Origin: Escherichia phage LorandFenyves_Bas91
Sequence record: PQ850614.1
DNA length: 64,000 bases
Reading direction: 5' to 3' (one strand)
Both the position numbers and the translations under genes were made by a program. Positions 6,853-40,160 of the stretch are shown here, one piece after another (position 1 is the stretch's first letter; every line of letters begins with the position of its first letter). The notes below the pieces were generated by a model. The model saw only the letters and a list, made by a program, of their open reading frames with translations. It was not told where the DNA came from and ran no database searches.

Positions 6853-6861
6853 TAATGTATA
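6853..6861 (+). promoter_or_regulatory. TAATGTATA element, candidate phage-sigma promoter
   Basis: Exact 9-mer 34 nt upstream of the ATG at 6895, directly after the capsid terminator; same 9-mer recurs at 23765 and twice in the 33.5-33.9 kb intergenic region. Confidence 0.45.
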
Positions 6862-20047: not shown

Positions 20048-21100
20048 ATGTCTTTATTTGGAAAATCAGCTTCTAGCAAAACCACAGTGGCCCCTTCCTC
20101 TCAGGTTGATGCCCTGCTGAAGCAGATTGTTGCTAATGCTCAGAATATGCAGAACAACGATCCGGGATTCATCTCCCAACAGCTGGCTGGGTTTAATGGC
20201 AATCAACAAGGCGCTCTGAACAACTTAGCAGCTTCTACTACTCAGAAGCAATTGGCTGATATGTACACGCCTCGTACACAGCAAGGGTTGGACCAATTAA
20301 ACTCTCTTGCACAGCAGTATCAGAATATTGTCAACGGTGGTGGTCTAACTGCTGATGGTGTTAATAACTTCAGTAAAGGATTGAATAACTCAGCTCTTGC
20401 TCAAGCGACTAGTAAGGCAGCTTCCAATGTATCTCTAGGAAATGGTTCTGATTCAGGCTCTCTCCGTAGAGCTGCTGCTCAAGGTGCTGCTCTGAACAGT
20501 GCTAACACTAACCTAGCTCGTACTATTAGTGGCAAGAATATGGGAATCAGTGCTCTTCAACAAGACCAAAACTTCCAGAGGGGATTGCTTGGTGCTCAGT
20601 CAGGATTGGCTGGACAGAATCTCAACCTTGGTGCTCAAGGTGTTCAGGCAACCCAACAAGCTATCCAGAATCAACTCATGGCTGGTAATCTACAACAGCA
20701 ACAAGCCCAAGCTCAAGCTGATATTAATTGGCAGAATGCTATTGGCTCTCAACAGTATGGGTGGAATCAGCTTAACAACCAACTTAATGTATTAAATAGT
20801 GTAAGCCCAATGGCTGGGTACACGATTAAGAATGCTGCTCCGGGGGTTAATACTGGACAACAGCTCCTAGGTGCTGGTATCACTGGATTAGGTATTGCAG
20901 GGCGTATGGGTGCTTTCTCTCCTAATCAACAGACTCAGAATGCTTGGAGTTCCTATAACAACTCAGGTGGGCAATCTGGAATGGCTGGCCCTATGATTGG
21001 AGGTTCTAATCTTTCTCAACAGAGAGGTCAGTCTAACTGGTTATCCACAGCAGGTAGTAATATCTTAGGTGGTGTTTTAGGGGCATTTGGAGCAAACTAA
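20048..21100 (+). CDS. Q/N/G/A-rich low-complexity internal virion protein
   Basis: 350 aa, extreme Gln/Asn/Gly/Ala/Ser bias. Confidence 0.5.
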   Translation: MSLFGKSASSKTTVAPSSQVDALLKQIVANAQNMQNNDPGFISQQLAGFNGNQQGALNNLAASTTQKQLADMYTPRTQQGLDQLNSLAQQYQNIVNGGGLTADGVNNFSKGLNNSALAQATSKAASNVSLGNGSDSGSLRRAAAQGAALNSANTNLARTISGKNMGISALQQDQNFQRGLLGAQSGLAGQNLNLGAQGVQATQQAIQNQLMAGNLQQQQAQAQADINWQNAIGSQQYGWNQLNNQLNVLNSVSPMAGYTIKNAAPGVNTGQQLLGAGITGLGIAGRMGAFSPNQQTQNAWSSYNNSGGQSGMAGPMIGGSNLSQQRGQSNWLSTAGSNILGGVLGAFGAN

Positions 21101-21112
21101 AGGAGATTTGAT

Positions 21113-22081
21113 ATGGGACTTTTCGGAGGAGGGGGTAGTAAAACTACTTCCCAAATGATTCGCCCTGAATACATTCAACAGTATATTGACCAGCTTAACC
21201 AGCAGATCGGTAATACTAGTTCAGGAGATTATGTTTATCGAGATAATGTAGGGTTTAATAATAATCAGACAGAGGCACTTAATAACCTAGCACAATCTGG
21301 CGCTTTGGGCACGCTCTCACAGCAATATATGGATGCAGCAGGTCAAGGCTTGGGCTATCTAGATAATGCCTATAAAGGCTATCAGAGCCTCTCTGGACAA
21401 GGTGGGATTACTGGAGAACAGATTGGTGCTCTCGCTGGTCAACTGTATGATGATGACGCTGTGCAAGCAGCCATTACAGCTAATAATGAACAGGTTCAAC
21501 AAAACTTGGCACGTAATGCTCTTCCTCAGTTAGCTCAACAGTTTGCTGGTCAACAAGGTTCAGGTGCTCGTATGGCTAAGTCTTTTGCCCAAGGCGATGC
21601 TCTGAATCAGATGCAGGGCCAAGCAACAGATATCACCAATAGTGCCTATAACTCGGCTATTAGCCAAGCTGAAAGCATCCTCTCTGGTAATAGACAGAAT
21701 CAGGCAGCTGCTCTCTCTGGTCTTTCTAATATTGGTTCTAACCTTTCTAACCTAGGTCAGCAGGGTGCTAATTTGTCTCAACAGCAAATAATGAATCAAT
21801 GGAATGCAGGGTTGCAGCAACAACAGCAACAACAGAATGAATATGATAATGCCTACCAGAATGCTCAGAACGCAGCTAATTGGGGATGGCAAGATATCAA
21901 TAACCAACTCGGTGCAGCAGGTGTACTTAACGGTGCTCTCGGACAAACTACAACTACTAAAACATCTGGTGGCAAAGGTGGTTTCCTTGGTGGAGCTATG
22001 AGTGGTGCAGCAGCTGGCTCTTCCTTTGGACCTTGGGGTGCATTAGCTGGGGGTGTAATCGGTGGGTTGGCTAGTACTTAA
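21113..22081 (+). CDS. Q/N/G/A-rich low-complexity internal virion protein (paralogue-like)
   Basis: 322 aa, same compositional bias as the preceding gene, poly-Q stretch. Confidence 0.5.
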   Translation: MGLFGGGGSKTTSQMIRPEYIQQYIDQLNQQIGNTSSGDYVYRDNVGFNNNQTEALNNLAQSGALGTLSQQYMDAAGQGLGYLDNAYKGYQSLSGQGGITGEQIGALAGQLYDDDAVQAAITANNEQVQQNLARNALPQLAQQFAGQQGSGARMAKSFAQGDALNQMQGQATDITNSAYNSAISQAESILSGNRQNQAAALSGLSNIGSNLSNLGQQGANLSQQQIMNQWNAGLQQQQQQQNEYDNAYQNAQNAANWGWQDINNQLGAAGVLNGALGQTTTTKTSGGKGGFLGGAMSGAAAGSSFGPWGALAGGVIGGLAST

Positions 22082-33595: not shown

Positions 33596-33604
33596 TATAC
33601 ATTA
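33596..33604 (-). promoter_or_regulatory. TAATGTATA element on minus strand, candidate promoter for SSB and spanin operon
   Basis: Plus strand reads TATACATTA; lies about 60 nt upstream of the SSB start in a 416-bp AT-rich intergenic region. Confidence 0.4.
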
Positions 33605-36890: not shown

Positions 36891-38735
36891 TTAGTGTGTA
36901 TGCATCCAGTTAAGTCCAATCTGACAATCAGATGCCAGAGGACATTCCATATTCAGATACTCGCCAGCTTTCTTAACACAAAGCTCGGTGTGCTCTTTGA
37001 GTTTCTGTACATCATTACGGTTTACTGAGAATTGACCTTCATCGTGCATATCAATTACCTTAGCACAACGAACCTTATCTTTCTCAATCCACTTGTTAAG
37101 GAACATCATAGCATATTTCATAACAACAGCACCAGCACATTGCAGGAGTGTGTTAAGGGCTTTATGAACCATAACCTTACCAGTGGCATCCCGTCTCATT
37201 GTAATCTTACGACCATCAACTCCAATCAAGTATCCTTGAGCAGCTTTCTCTGTCATACGATCAATGAGGATTGCAATACATGGATTCTCTGCCAAGAAAC
37301 GTGCTCGCATCACTGAACCTTCGTCAGCCCCACCACCTACAATTGAACCAAGCTTAGCGTCGCCAGCACCATAGTTAAATGCATAGATAAACGTCTTAGC
37401 GTTGTCACGAGTAGGAAGACCAGCAAGTTTCTGGTTGTGGGAGTGGATATCACCTTCAAGGAGAATATCACGATACATAATAGCAGAAGCTAAACCACGT
37501 TCTGCCAGAGCTTTCTTAGCTGGGTTGTTCTCTTCGATTGCCTCAGCAAGCATATCCCTACACTCTTTAATGAGGTAGTGAGCGAGCATACGAAGTTCAA
37601 GTCCAGAACCATCATACCCTAAGAATACTTCTTTACCAGCGGGTATGTAATATTTGTAAGCGCCTACAGGTTTGTCTTTCTTCCCCGGCTTACCTTTCTC
37701 GTAAATTACGTTAGTACCTTTTCGTATATAACAACCATCAGGAACAACGTTAGTAATAACGAAAGGACGAGAGTGATCACTGTCTGAGTTATAGTCAGAC
37801 TCAAACAAACTGCGACACTCGTGACCAAACAGACCACGGGAGGGAATATTAACCACGATACGATGTTTGAATCGAAAAGTCGGCGTAGCGCAGCTGTTAG
37901 CTTCTGCCGAAAGTTTACCATCTTCGCGTTCCTTTGCTATGAGTCCACTGATAAGACCTAGCCTGTGAGCCGCTACAACGCGTCTCTTAAGCAAACTTCC
38001 GACACTCCCTAGCTCACCCCCTAACCCTTCTTCAAGAGTCTCCTCGAGGTTTGTAGGAGCTGTAGGCCACTTGTTTGATGTGGCTAGTGCTTTCTTAATC
38101 TCATCAAACGTTACAGGATTACGGCGATTAGGGTTCAACCCCAAACCAAATACGTAAGCCTTCATGTAATTCTTAGTCTTAAACCTGAAATGCTTTTCTA
38201 AGAACTTCTTAATATCAGCGTCAACCATCTCGGCTGTCTGCTTCTGCTTAGCATTGCCTCGCATCCAAGCAGTATACCATGCTTGGTATGTTCCATACTT
38301 TCTCATATCTTTCTTAATTTCGAAAGTATTCCAAGGCTTCTTAGATACGTTAAACTCTGGAGGAAGAAAGCCCTCATCCATAAGAGCTTCTTTAACTCGT
38401 GCATCTTTCGATGGGTCAAAGTCTACGTATTCGACACAGGTGAAAGCTCCACCAATATCTTCTCTCTTCAGCCCAACCCTATCACAATAGGCTTGAGGCC
38501 ACTTCTGTAAAGCTCCAGACTTCTTAAATGGCTTCATGTAAGTAGAGCCATCTAATCTCATCTTAGGTAAGAGAGGAATCAACTCTCTGTCAATATTAAC
38601 AATAATCTCTTTAAGGAGGTGAACATACCACCGAGCATTTCTTCGGTTGAAACTCACTCCGTGCTTTGCTTGCTTAGAGATTATATCAGCGACAGTCATC
38701 TCTGTCAAAAATGGAAGAGCGTCCGGGTTGCTCAC
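36891..38735 (-). CDS. family A DNA polymerase, polymerase domain only
   Basis: Motif A YDGSGLELRMLAHY, motif B RDNAKTFIYAFNYGAG, motif C IDMHDEG; no 3'-5' exonuclease motifs in this ORF. Confidence 0.85.
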   Translation of the reverse strand: MSNPDALPFLTEMTVADIISKQAKHGVSFNRRNARWYVHLLKEIIVNIDRELIPLLPKMRLDGSTYMKPFKKSGALQKWPQAYCDRVGLKREDIGGAFTCVEYVDFDPSKDARVKEALMDEGFLPPEFNVSKKPWNTFEIKKDMRKYGTYQAWYTAWMRGNAKQKQTAEMVDADIKKFLEKHFRFKTKNYMKAYVFGLGLNPNRRNPVTFDEIKKALATSNKWPTAPTNLEETLEEGLGGELGSVGSLLKRRVVAAHRLGLISGLIAKEREDGKLSAEANSCATPTFRFKHRIVVNIPSRGLFGHECRSLFESDYNSDSDHSRPFVITNVVPDGCYIRKGTNVIYEKGKPGKKDKPVGAYKYYIPAGKEVFLGYDGSGLELRMLAHYLIKECRDMLAEAIEENNPAKKALAERGLASAIMYRDILLEGDIHSHNQKLAGLPTRDNAKTFIYAFNYGAGDAKLGSIVGGGADEGSVMRARFLAENPCIAILIDRMTEKAAQGYLIGVDGRKITMRRDATGKVMVHKALNTLLQCAGAVVMKYAMMFLNKWIEKDKVRCAKVIDMHDEGQFSVNRNDVQKLKEHTELCVKKAGEYLNMECPLASDCQIGLNWMHTH

Positions 38736-38751
38736 TTTATACTCCTTTAAA

Positions 38752-39174
38752 TTATTGGTAAAGTAAATCTGTAAATGCTTGGTTATCTTCTACTACATTC
38801 AACATGGTAGCTTCATCACTATAAGCCCTAACCGTCCCGTTGACAACTGTCCAAGGAGGAGGTGGAGGTGGTGTATGGTTAGCCCTAGCTTCACGAGGTT
38901 GCTCTCGTACTAAATGAGCCACAACCCTTTGGTTAGCGACTTCTTCTCTTTCTCTAATAGCTCTCTGGATATAGGCCAGCTTCATGCCCCAAGCTTCTTC
39001 AAACTCTTGAGGATGCTTATCACTGATAACCACATACTGACGTTCAGAAATACCAGAGCGAATCTCTGATAATAATTCATGGAACAAATCTAGTTCGTGC
39101 TCAGTGAGATTCATTTCAATATCATCCCACTTTAGAACTAGGAAACGGTTTTGGTGTCTAGCTGGTAATGGCAT
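38752..39174 (-). CDS. hypothetical protein
   Basis: 140 aa ORF upstream of and coupled to the polymerase gene; poly-Pro stretch. Confidence 0.45.
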   Translation of the reverse strand: MPLPARHQNRFLVLKWDDIEMNLTEHELDLFHELLSEIRSGISERQYVVISDKHPQEFEEAWGMKLAYIQRAIREREEVANQRVVAHLVREQPREARANHTPPPPPPWTVVNGTVRAYSDEATMLNVVEDNQAFTDLLYQ

Positions 39175-39177
39175 AAC

Positions 39178-39462
39178 TCAACCTCTTGGGAATGGCATCA
39201 AAAATTCCACAGCAGATTTAATTTCACTATTGATTCTTGAATCACGATAAGAGATAAACTTACCTTTGCTATCACGTAACATCACATGAGTTCTGGCTGT
39301 TTTGTGAGGGAGTAGTGTGACACTAGTTGGGATAGTATCAATCCCTACAGCGTATTTGTCAATAGTCTTACTTTCAGCCAACAGATAAGACCAAGTACGC
39401 GGTTTCTTCTCCGGGCGGTTGGGGTATGTGTCTCGAATCTGTACCATAGCTAACTTATTCAT
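39178..39462 (-). CDS. hypothetical protein, tandem paralogue A
   Basis: C-terminal half PHKTARTHVMLRDSKGKFISYRDS...FLMPFPRG is closely similar to the adjacent gene. Confidence 0.5.
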   Translation of the reverse strand: MNKLAMVQIRDTYPNRPEKKPRTWSYLLAESKTIDKYAVGIDTIPTSVTLLPHKTARTHVMLRDSKGKFISYRDSRINSEIKSAVEFLMPFPRG

Positions 39463-39463
39463 A

Positions 39464-39718
39464 TTAAACTCCTTTAGGGAATGGAATGAGATTTTCTACT
39501 GCAACACGGAAAGATTTTTCTACGTTCTTATTCTTATAAGAGATAAATTTTCCATCAGCTCCGCGAAGGAGTACGTTAGTGCGAGCTGTTTTTGGGTTAA
39601 TCTCAATCATCCGTTCGATGATCTTGTTTGATTTGTTGTGGTGGTTAGTGAAAGTCCACTTAACAACCTTGCCATCTCTGGTTACATCAAAAATATTTAC
39701 GATTTTTACAATAGACAT
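39464..39718 (-). CDS. hypothetical protein, tandem paralogue B
   Basis: C-terminal half NPKTARTNVLLRGADGKFISYKNK...NLIPFPKG is closely similar to the adjacent gene. Confidence 0.5.
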   Translation of the reverse strand: MSIVKIVNIFDVTRDGKVVKWTFTNHHNKSNKIIERMIEINPKTARTNVLLRGADGKFISYKNKNVEKSFRVAVENLIPFPKGV

Positions 39719-39786
39719 ACTTATTACCTAGGAAGTTTAGTTTGGTTTATATAAAAGAAAAGGCCACCCATTTGGGTAGCCTTATA

Positions 39787-40104
39787 TTACGATGAGCTTA
39801 AAGCTCCTTTGCGTGCTCCAGCTGCTTTTCCAGCTCGATCACCACTTTTGCCGCCGTTTGAACGGTTTGAGCTGACTGATTCAACACGTAAGTTGCTTGA
39901 CGCATTAGAGCCTCCAGACTTGACAGCTCGTTTGTGTCCAACGTCTTTACCTCTGACAGCAGCTTTTCCATCGCGCTTTTCAACGATGCGACGTGCACGG
40001 TGGCGCTGAGCATCTCCGCTCTTGCTCCCAACGCCTGTCTCACCACGGGCAATTGCGGTACGTCTTTCTTGTGCATAATCTCTCTTTCCTACATGGTCTG
40101 CCAT
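39787..40104 (-). CDS. basic low-complexity protein, possibly KGG-repeat stress-protein-like
   Basis: Strong AAGGAG RBS; G-rich first codon positions support this frame over the overlapping 39798..40076 ORF; N-terminus MADHVGKRDYAQERR resembles YciG/YmdF-type proteins (low certainty). Confidence 0.45.
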   Translation of the reverse strand: MADHVGKRDYAQERRTAIARGETGVGSKSGDAQRHRARRIVEKRDGKAAVRGKDVGHKRAVKSGGSNASSNLRVESVSSNRSNGGKSGDRAGKAAGARKGALSSS

Positions 40105-40160
40105 TTAGAACTCCTTAATATATCAGTGTACACTAAGGAGTATACATTATAAGTTACTGT

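Follow-up and report, generated by a model that had tools for sequence, protein, structure and literature searches.

Two small open reading frames (ORFs), separated by a single nucleotide and similar in their C-terminal regions, lie close to the DNA polymerase gene of Escherichia phage LorandFenyves_Bas91 (GenBank PQ850614.1), a Kuravirus, that is, a phiEco32-like podophage of E. coli. In a first-pass annotation of the window, the 64 kb stretch of this genome that is analysed here, they were picked out as tandem duplicates belonging to a rapidly evolving accessory family. Kuraviruses are phage-therapy candidates, and most of their middle genes are without an assigned function. Here, we ask what the two ORFs are, how old their duplication is, which parts of them evolve rapidly, and what their products might do.

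Two adjacent paralogues

The two ORFs are located where they had been placed, 1 nt apart and on the minus strand, which the first-pass annotation had left unstated. The upstream paralogue, 84 aa (39464..39718), is of the phiEco32 gp57/SU10_054 type, as judged by a full-length match to PHROG 6814 (E 3.1e-36), an AlphaFold2 model and its orthologues. The downstream paralogue, 94 aa (39178..39462), is of the phiEco32 gp56/SU10_053 type, as judged by its match to PHROG 6814 (E 5.1e-36), an AlphaFold2 model and omega values. The pair is homologous and positionally equivalent to phiEco32 gp57/gp56 and to SU10_054/SU10_053, and does not differ from them in any way that would place it outside PHROG 6814. 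The 1.5 kb around the pair is 99.7% identical to the corresponding part of Escherichia phage vB_EcoP-CHD5UKE1, and 90–97% identical to that of many other kuraviruses.

When the two proteins were compared using BLASTP, residues 43–83 of the 84-aa protein matched residues 54–94 of the 94-aa protein with 22/41 identities and 76% positives (E = 1e-15), consistent with their description as tandem paralogues with a similar C-terminal region. The N-termini are divergent, as had also been reported, but they are not unrelated. Residues 1–84 of the shorter protein align with positions 1–86 of the 86-position PHROG 6814 profile and residues 1–94 of the longer one with positions 1–85. As both match the profile end to end, homology spans their full length and extends beyond the C-terminal 45 residues. 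In a multiple alignment, an N-terminal strand (M..V..V.I.D) is also common to both copies, and the extra length of the 94-aa copy is accounted for by insertions within its N-terminal half.

There is no third copy of the family within the 64 kb window. The only other adjacent paralogues are encoded at 20048–21100 and 21113–22081 (both plus strand) in the structural region, and this is presumably the first of the two local duplications that the first-pass annotation had counted. Their products share 31% identity over 275 aa (E 2e-10) and, via alignment to the SU10 genome, they correspond in position to SU10_021 and SU10_022 ('putative DNA injection protein').

A conserved C-terminal module and its predicted fold

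In an alignment of 33 diverse family members, the block TARTNVxLRDxxGKFISY...LxPFP is near-invariant. In the upstream copy this C-terminal module is TARTNVLLRGADGKFISYKNKNVEKSFRVAVENLIPFPKGV (39467..39589, minus strand), which is predicted to form a beta3–beta4 hairpin, helix alpha2 and a PFP tail and is delimited by the alignment and by omega. In the downstream copy, it is TARTHVMLRDSKGKFISYRDSRINSEIKSAVEFLMPFPRG (39181..39300, minus strand; BLASTP and alignment). The invariant or near-invariant columns are T44, A45, R46, T47, V49, G56, F58, S60, L77, P79, F80 and P81, and the helix A[V/M]xxL that follows the hairpin and the PFP near the C-terminus are also invariant or nearly so. Columns outside the block average approximately 34% identity. 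The first-pass annotation had staked its reading on conservation of the shared block in homologues and, as no other part of the family is as well conserved as this block, the reading survives this check. The hairpin residues R46, R/K52, K/R57, Y/F61 and K/R62 are retained even by acidic members of the family. Charge itself is not conserved; pI ranges from 4.6 to 10.8 and net charge from -6 to +10. The two copies in the source phage are both strongly basic (pI 10.1–10.3).

Where dS was large enough, omega was about 0.02–0.3 for the C-blocks and for the entire downstream copy, which indicates purifying selection. For the C-block of the upstream copy, omega was 0.02–0.23 and mostly ≤0.13, though dS reached 1.3. 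For the downstream copy, which is conserved along its full length, omega was about 0.1–0.3 in both halves in the more divergent pairs.

The same topology, beta-beta-alpha-beta-beta-alpha, was predicted for both paralogues by AlphaFold2, with lower confidence in the C-terminal tail. The model of the 84-aa protein has a mean pLDDT of 76.5 and a pTM of 0.62, and that of the 94-aa protein a mean pLDDT of 83.5 and a pTM of 0.73. A two-layer alpha+beta fold is predicted with confidence, apart from the low-confidence tail. When the fold was tested for an internal hairpin–helix duplication, the two hairpins aligned in register at an E value of 0.07, and a fold made up of the same unit twice is not supported.

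These observations also bear on whether the ORFs are genes at all. Their small size, and nothing else, would fit non-coding ORFs that resemble one another by chance or because of a repeat at the DNA level. However, the proteins match at E 1e-15 though the third positions of the underlying DNA are randomised, omega is far below 1, the Shine-Dalgarno sequences are good, the fold predictions are confident and the ORFs are conserved in distant relatives. This explanation is refuted, with a residual probability that is negligible, and both ORFs are identified by their sequence properties as real genes.

Distribution and annotation of the family

PHROG 6814 is a family without a recorded function, and the gp57/gp56 genes are not named in any searchable paper. 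Word-indexed searches returned only close relatives, many of them on contigs of approximately 70–80 kb. When 1.84 billion representative proteins were searched exhaustively with an HMMER profile, 27 clusters of small proteins (79–103 aa) were returned. The search also returned four long proteins with beta-propeller-like, kinesin and Ig-like repeats, which share only a short recurring motif and were discarded as spurious. Searches of Pfam, NCBIfam, PADLOC and the PDB with single sequences gave no significant match, nor did the 33-sequence alignment when every member was scanned against Pfam and a profile was run against the PDB.

The family is found in 98 annotated phage records, all of them from Escherichia or Shigella phages, and each of the 98 contains at least one member. 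The number of records with the PolA of the source phage at ≥80% identity is also 98, though here the counts, and not the individual records, were compared. We regard it as secure that this is a core family of the phage subfamily. The label 'accessory' is thus doubtful for the family as a whole, given the equal numbers of family and PolA records, and it is the second copy alone that varies or can be dispensed with.

In the GenBank entries for CHD5UKE1, EC.W2-6, DE5, ES17 and others, the 84-aa gene is labelled 'autotransporter adhesin'. This label is unsupported. Autotransporter barrels and adhesin repeats are hundreds of residues long, the protein is 84 aa, and it matches nothing in Pfam or NCBIfam at E ≤ 1 save for one insignificant NCBIfam match (E 0.14). 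Our result corrects a mis-annotation that is spreading, and the family motif is now defined for use in later searches.

An old duplication with a variable second copy

The C-blocks of the two copies share 53% identity at the DNA level and 32% at third codon positions, from which we conclude that the duplication is old and that there has been no recent gene conversion. Gene conversion between the copies was rejected on the basis of the third positions. The term 'local duplication', which suggests a recent event, is not supported as it stands; pairs of upstream and downstream type, again with a 1 nt gap, are also present in distant metagenomic relatives and in Suseptimavirus. A neighbour-joining tree parted the upstream-type from the downstream-type sequences across Kuravirus, Suseptimavirus and a metagenomic relative, though a tree of about 85 residues is not robust.

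Related genomes, in which the first-pass annotation had proposed that copy number be compared, contain one or two copies, and it is only the second copy that is variable or dispensable. Annotation and alignment agree that Bas92 has the upstream type only, and sequence searches found one matching place each in Bas94, Bas89 and EP335. A gp56-type second copy, at ≥60% identity, is present in 66/98 records, and the remaining records have an SU7_53-type second copy, a KBNP1711-type second copy or none. In a distant relative with two copies (L016, 147–419), it is the upstream copy that departs from the motif, with LAKT in place of TART and DFP in place of PFP. The downstream copy of this relative mostly keeps the motif (TCRT in place of TART, PFP kept), which is the reverse of the situation in Bas92, where only the upstream type remains.

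A hypervariable cassette in the upstream copy

The rapid evolution that had been attributed to the family as a whole is confined to codons ~12–43 of the upstream copy, and does not extend to the C-blocks or to any part of the downstream copy. This segment (39590..39685, minus strand), a hypervariable cassette of approximately 90 nt or 30 residues, is predicted to form strand beta2 and helix alpha1. It is sharply bounded, as seen in 30 nt bins, allele classes and dS. Across 39680–39597, the bins have 37–60% nucleotide identity to phages with other alleles, and the flanking bins have 70–100%. Among 37 sequences (36 cluster representatives and the source-phage copy), we counted at least 10 cassette classes, which have mutual identities of 6–56% and are all joined to C-blocks that are 83–100% identical. 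Divergent cassettes flanked by sequence this similar imply allele swapping.

When compared with the complete SU10 genome, the window is 97.4% identical across 96% of its length. In the upstream gene, however, dS between the source phage and SU10 is 1.05 in the N-terminal half and 0.07 in the C-terminal half. The cassette is one of about five divergence islands of the substitution type in the 64 kb when compared with SU10, and the authors of the SU10 study noted that CDS54 is the least conserved of the shared middle genes, with 66% to phiEco32. Between the source-phage copy and most other alleles, dN in the N-terminal half is 0.39–0.56, and omega is mostly 0.15–0.8 and reaches 1.3, with just two pairs above 1. 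In P0032-type proteins, an N-terminal half of Suseptimavirus type is joined to a C-terminal half of Kuravirus type. No comparable cassette is found in the downstream copy.

Two possible origins of the cassette were considered and rejected. A diversity-generating retroelement target or a silent-cassette donor would involve a second copy of the cassette, which is absent throughout the 64 kb window. Moreover, the alleles differ through indels and at all four bases, and no reverse transcriptase is annotated in the inspected kuravirus regions or in the SU10 genome. Co-conversion alongside a homing endonuclease gene does not account for the cassette either, as approximately 100 nt of conserved sequence, made up of a hairpin, the ribosome-binding site and the first 12 codons (87–97% identical), intervenes between the insertion point at ~39785–39792 and the cassette. 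EC.W2-6, which has the homing HNH gene, and the source phage, which does not, carry the same cassette allele.

In eight genomes, no covariation was seen between cassette alleles and either the downstream copy or the linker of the 140-aa protein encoded next to it. As they do not co-segregate with alleles of neighbouring genes, covariation points to no partner. We consider it secure, from the sequence comparisons, that the upstream copy contains a bounded, recombining hypervariable cassette, which is new. The tandem paralogues of this orphan family are genuine and in themselves fairly ordinary; it is the presence of such a cassette in a core gene of a replication operon that is the notable aspect of the locus.

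Gene order and expression signals

The pair does not lie just upstream of the polymerase operon, as had been thought, but inside a co-directional string on the minus strand, in the order HNH-like gene, family pair, 140-aa gene, PolA gene. The HNH-like gene (39787..40104, minus strand; 105 aa, PHROG 4590) is the first gene of the unit. The 140-aa gene (38752..39174, minus strand; PHROG 11427) is directly downstream of the pair and separates it from the last of the four-gene string (36891..38735, minus strand). This encodes PolA, a family A DNA polymerase consisting of the polymerase domain only (Pfam DNA_pol_A, 2.5e-23). The first two were identified as ORFs with PHROG matches.

At the junction of the 84-aa and 94-aa genes (39455..39480, minus strand; ...CCATTCCCTAAAGGAGTTTAA-T-ATG, read from the sequence), the K-G-V codons after the PFP of the upstream copy double as the Shine-Dalgarno sequence of the 94-aa gene, AAGGAG, and TAA, 1 nt and the ATG come next. 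At the next junction (39170–39190; AGAGGTTGA-GTT-ATG), the 94-aa and 140-aa genes are 3 nt apart, and the R-G codons after the PFP of the 94-aa gene supply the ribosome-binding site for the 140-aa gene. We infer that the three small genes are translationally coupled.

An intrinsic-terminator-like hairpin (39750..39783, minus strand), recognised by its fold, its conservation and the annotation of phage SU7, is located approximately 30 nt upstream of the start of the 84-aa gene. It has a 10 bp GC-rich stem followed by a U-tract (UUUUCUUUU) and a folding energy of -17.5 kcal/mol (z -4.6). The mean identity of the hairpin region among kuraviruses is 92–96%, and in SU7 it is an annotated terminator.

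Between PhoH and the HNH-like gene, TAATGTATA (40141..40149, minus strand) is an exact match to the middle/late promoter element of the phage sigma factor gp36, for which a consensus has been published (PMC8948821). In the SU10 study, a middle promoter is assigned to the equivalent position, between CDS 56 and 57 (PMC4281155). Hence, TAATGTATA at 40141–40149 is likely to be the promoter of the unit that holds the pair, and by this criterion the pair are middle-class genes in a leftward middle-gene cluster. There are five exact copies of TAATGTATA in the 64 kb, at 6853, 23765 and 33668 on the plus strand and at 33596 and 40141 on the minus strand, and those at 33596 and 33668 are divergent and 70 nt apart. 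For phiEco32, six gp36 promoters (three middle and three late) have been published. A perfect sigma-70 promoter sequence (TTGACA, 17 nt, TATAAT, with a TG) is also present at 38680–38708 (minus strand), on the coding strand within codons ~9–19 of PolA, and may be either an internal promoter or a side effect of the conservation of the FLTEMTVADII peptide.

Neighbouring genes and synteny in distant relatives

An HNH-like gene precedes the family in every relative examined, and in several of them other ORFs lie in between. The HNH-like motif in the 105-aa PHROG 4590 protein is DVGHKRAVKSGGSNASSNLRVESVSSNRS, and distant homologues have DVDHIKPVKSGGSNESSNLRVRS. Even 7-11-like phages keep the PHROG 4590 gene, and its place is always upstream of PolA. 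A 92-aa ORF in an alternative frame (39798–40076) overlaps the 105-aa gene and is open in distant relatives too. On the other side of the pair, the 140-aa protein consists of a conserved N-terminal domain, an invariant C-terminal tip, EDNQAFTDLLYQ, and, between the two, a variable linker rich in proline; the tip, EDNQAFTDL(L/I)YQ, is retained even in Suseptimavirus.

Insertion hot spots flank the pair at ~39785–39792 and ~39172–39186 (loci L002, L003 and L004). Between the HNH-like gene and the terminator-like hairpin, EC.W2-6 has an HNH homing endonuclease gene and SU10 a 97-aa ORF (SU10_055). In phiEco32, EC.W2-6 and Bas90, the 94-aa and 140-aa genes are separated by a 52-aa ORF (phi32_55), and an insert of equal size is present in the same place in NJ01.

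The string of HNH-like gene, family member or members, PHROG 11427-like gene and PolA gene recurs in most of the distant relatives, in which family members are approximately 30–40% identical. Viral contigs of 82 and 90 kb contain a single family copy each, and in the former other genes replace the PHROG 11427-like gene. A 48 kb contig has one copy, which is acidic, and a short contig has two, which are likewise 1 nt apart. In a 48 kb metagenomic relative (L015, 6873–9354), a 175-aa ORF for an HNH-type endonuclease splits PolA into two frames. Overall, the pair can be identified as ancient paralogues of an orphan family with a predicted alpha+beta fold, at least one copy of which is found in the replication string of every relative examined.

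Possible functions of the pair

As the four-gene string is conserved across the subfamily and in metagenomic relatives, the pair probably has a part in replication or in protecting it. We tentatively favour a reading, possible rather than probable, in which the pair forms a small binding adaptor that combines an invariant docking module with a swappable specificity face. The products would be small cytoplasmic binding proteins, kept at a fixed ratio through translational coupling, and a homo- or heterodimer would be the probable working form. The hairpin TARTNVxLRDxxGKFISY, with its Arg, Asn, Arg, Lys and Tyr residues, helix alpha2 and the flexible LxPFP tail would make up the module that docks on an invariant partner, for which the candidates are, on the phage side, a replication component of the same operon and, on the host side, a conserved protein or nucleic acid. 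The beta2–alpha1 face of the upstream copy would be the exchangeable specificity surface; the shuffling of many old alleles among near-identical phages suggests that this surface engages a polymorphic host factor. Several observations do not sit easily with an adaptor. The range of net charge offers it no positive support, the conservation of the hairpin residues may have purely structural reasons, and the cassette, with omega above 1 in only two pairs, could be a structurally tolerant segment whose alleles, moreover, do not travel with those of neighbouring genes. In addition, 7-11-like phages have a homologous PolA (46%), and in the syntenic gene just a 21-residue resemblance to the motif. 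As their PolA is found without the family proper, the family is not an obligatory PolA subunit.

The fixed place of the pair in a replication operon and its middle-class timing would equally suit a replication accessory that binds nucleic acid, with one face of the sheet on single-stranded DNA, a primer–template or the mRNA of the operon. Such a protein might be an SSB-like or polymerase-loading factor, or a translational regulator, for a PolA that has no exonuclease and whose gene is the second one downstream. Apparently every phage with this PolA subtype has the family, the inspected regions of kuravirus genomes contain no annotated SSB, both source-phage copies are strongly basic, and R46, R/K52, K/R57, Y/F61 and K/R62 are kept even by acidic members. 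Proteins of the ferredoxin-like sandwich class often bind RNA via the sheet, and the topology of the AlphaFold2 models may be read as a permuted version of this sandwich. We nevertheless find this explanation rather doubtful. As charge is not conserved in the family, with members spanning -6 to +10, a simple nucleic-acid-binding role is weakened. A housekeeping DNA-binding protein would not be expected to have a hypervariable cassette or old balanced alleles, and 7-11-like phages have a related PolA without the family as such. Alternatively, the proteins would be stand-alone inhibitors of host proteins, involved in counter-defence or takeover like the small proteins encoded around T7 gene 5, with two copies directed at two target variants and the proximity to PolA incidental. 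The exchange of hypervariable cassette alleles between 97%-identical genomes, a second slot that holds one of three paralogue types or nothing, the narrow taxonomic range (27 clusters in 1.84 billion proteins) and a neighbourhood that is a hot spot for the insertion of small ORFs and HNH homing endonucleases all fit. However, the presence of at least one copy in all 98 records is unlike typical anti-defence genes, expression is of the middle rather than the early class, and the very strong purifying selection on the C-block across lineages argues for an invariant partner. There was also no match to PADLOC or to the available named anti-defence families, and as the family is not uniformly acidic it does not consist of DNA mimics. 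On balance, inhibition of a host target is fairly improbable.

A further account is that the proteins are a conserved scaffold on which the cassette is a tolerant surface segment, diversified by drift and phage mosaicism, and that the second copy is redundant. Cassette omega values mostly below 1 agree with this, the disordered linker of the 140-aa protein is a similar island of divergence, and four phages, Bas92 and the three identified by searches, have one copy. Drift is insufficient to explain a leap in synonymous divergence from 0.07 to 1.05 inside one gene of two 97%-identical phages, or the persistence of at least 10 deeply diverged alleles, both of which need long-term allele maintenance. 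Most genomes also retain both paralogue lineages under purifying selection. We consider this account unlikely.

Returning to the adaptor, a more specific version would make the upstream paralogue an arms-race determinant. Its hairpin/PFP module would hold it to a conserved host protein or to the replication machinery of the phage. Recombination in the conserved flanks would exchange the cassette between phages, so that the protein could match or escape host factors that are polymorphic, for example defence sensors that monitor phage replication, and the downstream paralogue would serve as the constant half of a heterodimer. This version is speculative, and the least likely of the roles discussed here. 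The cassette is a compact, testable candidate for a determinant of host interaction outside the tail fibres, and if this is confirmed, it would point to a host factor with which kuraviruses have to deal while their DNA is being replicated.

Comparison with known systems

Outside PHROG 6814, the nearest resemblance at the same locus is to PHROG 23896, an 89-aa protein of 7-11-like Salmonella phages (Grimontviridae) that is likewise encoded between the PHROG 4590 HNH-like gene and PolA. The end of this protein, FRTNVSVRDxKTGRFVKW, aligns with the family hairpin over 21 columns (hhalign probability 72–75%, E about 3e-5). It is otherwise unrelated, lacking helix alpha2 and the PFP tail, and a match of this length is not enough to establish homology. 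In the neighbouring 140-aa protein, the arrangement of a domain, a disordered linker and a docking tip is like that of SSB-type replication proteins. The pair itself does not have the five-stranded barrel of OB-fold SSBs. AbrB/MazE-type swapped-hairpin DNA binders, which share the hairpin–helix–hairpin order, were rejected because neither a structural match to their barrel nor an internal hairpin repeat was found. Acidic DNA-mimic inhibitors of the p56/Gp2 type were rejected because pI varies from 4.6 to 10.8 in the family and exceeds 10 in both source-phage copies. Also among the closest known systems are small phage inhibitors of host enzymes, such as phi29 p56, T4 Dmd and T7 Gp2, and the alpha+beta sandwiches of ferredoxin-like or RRM type.
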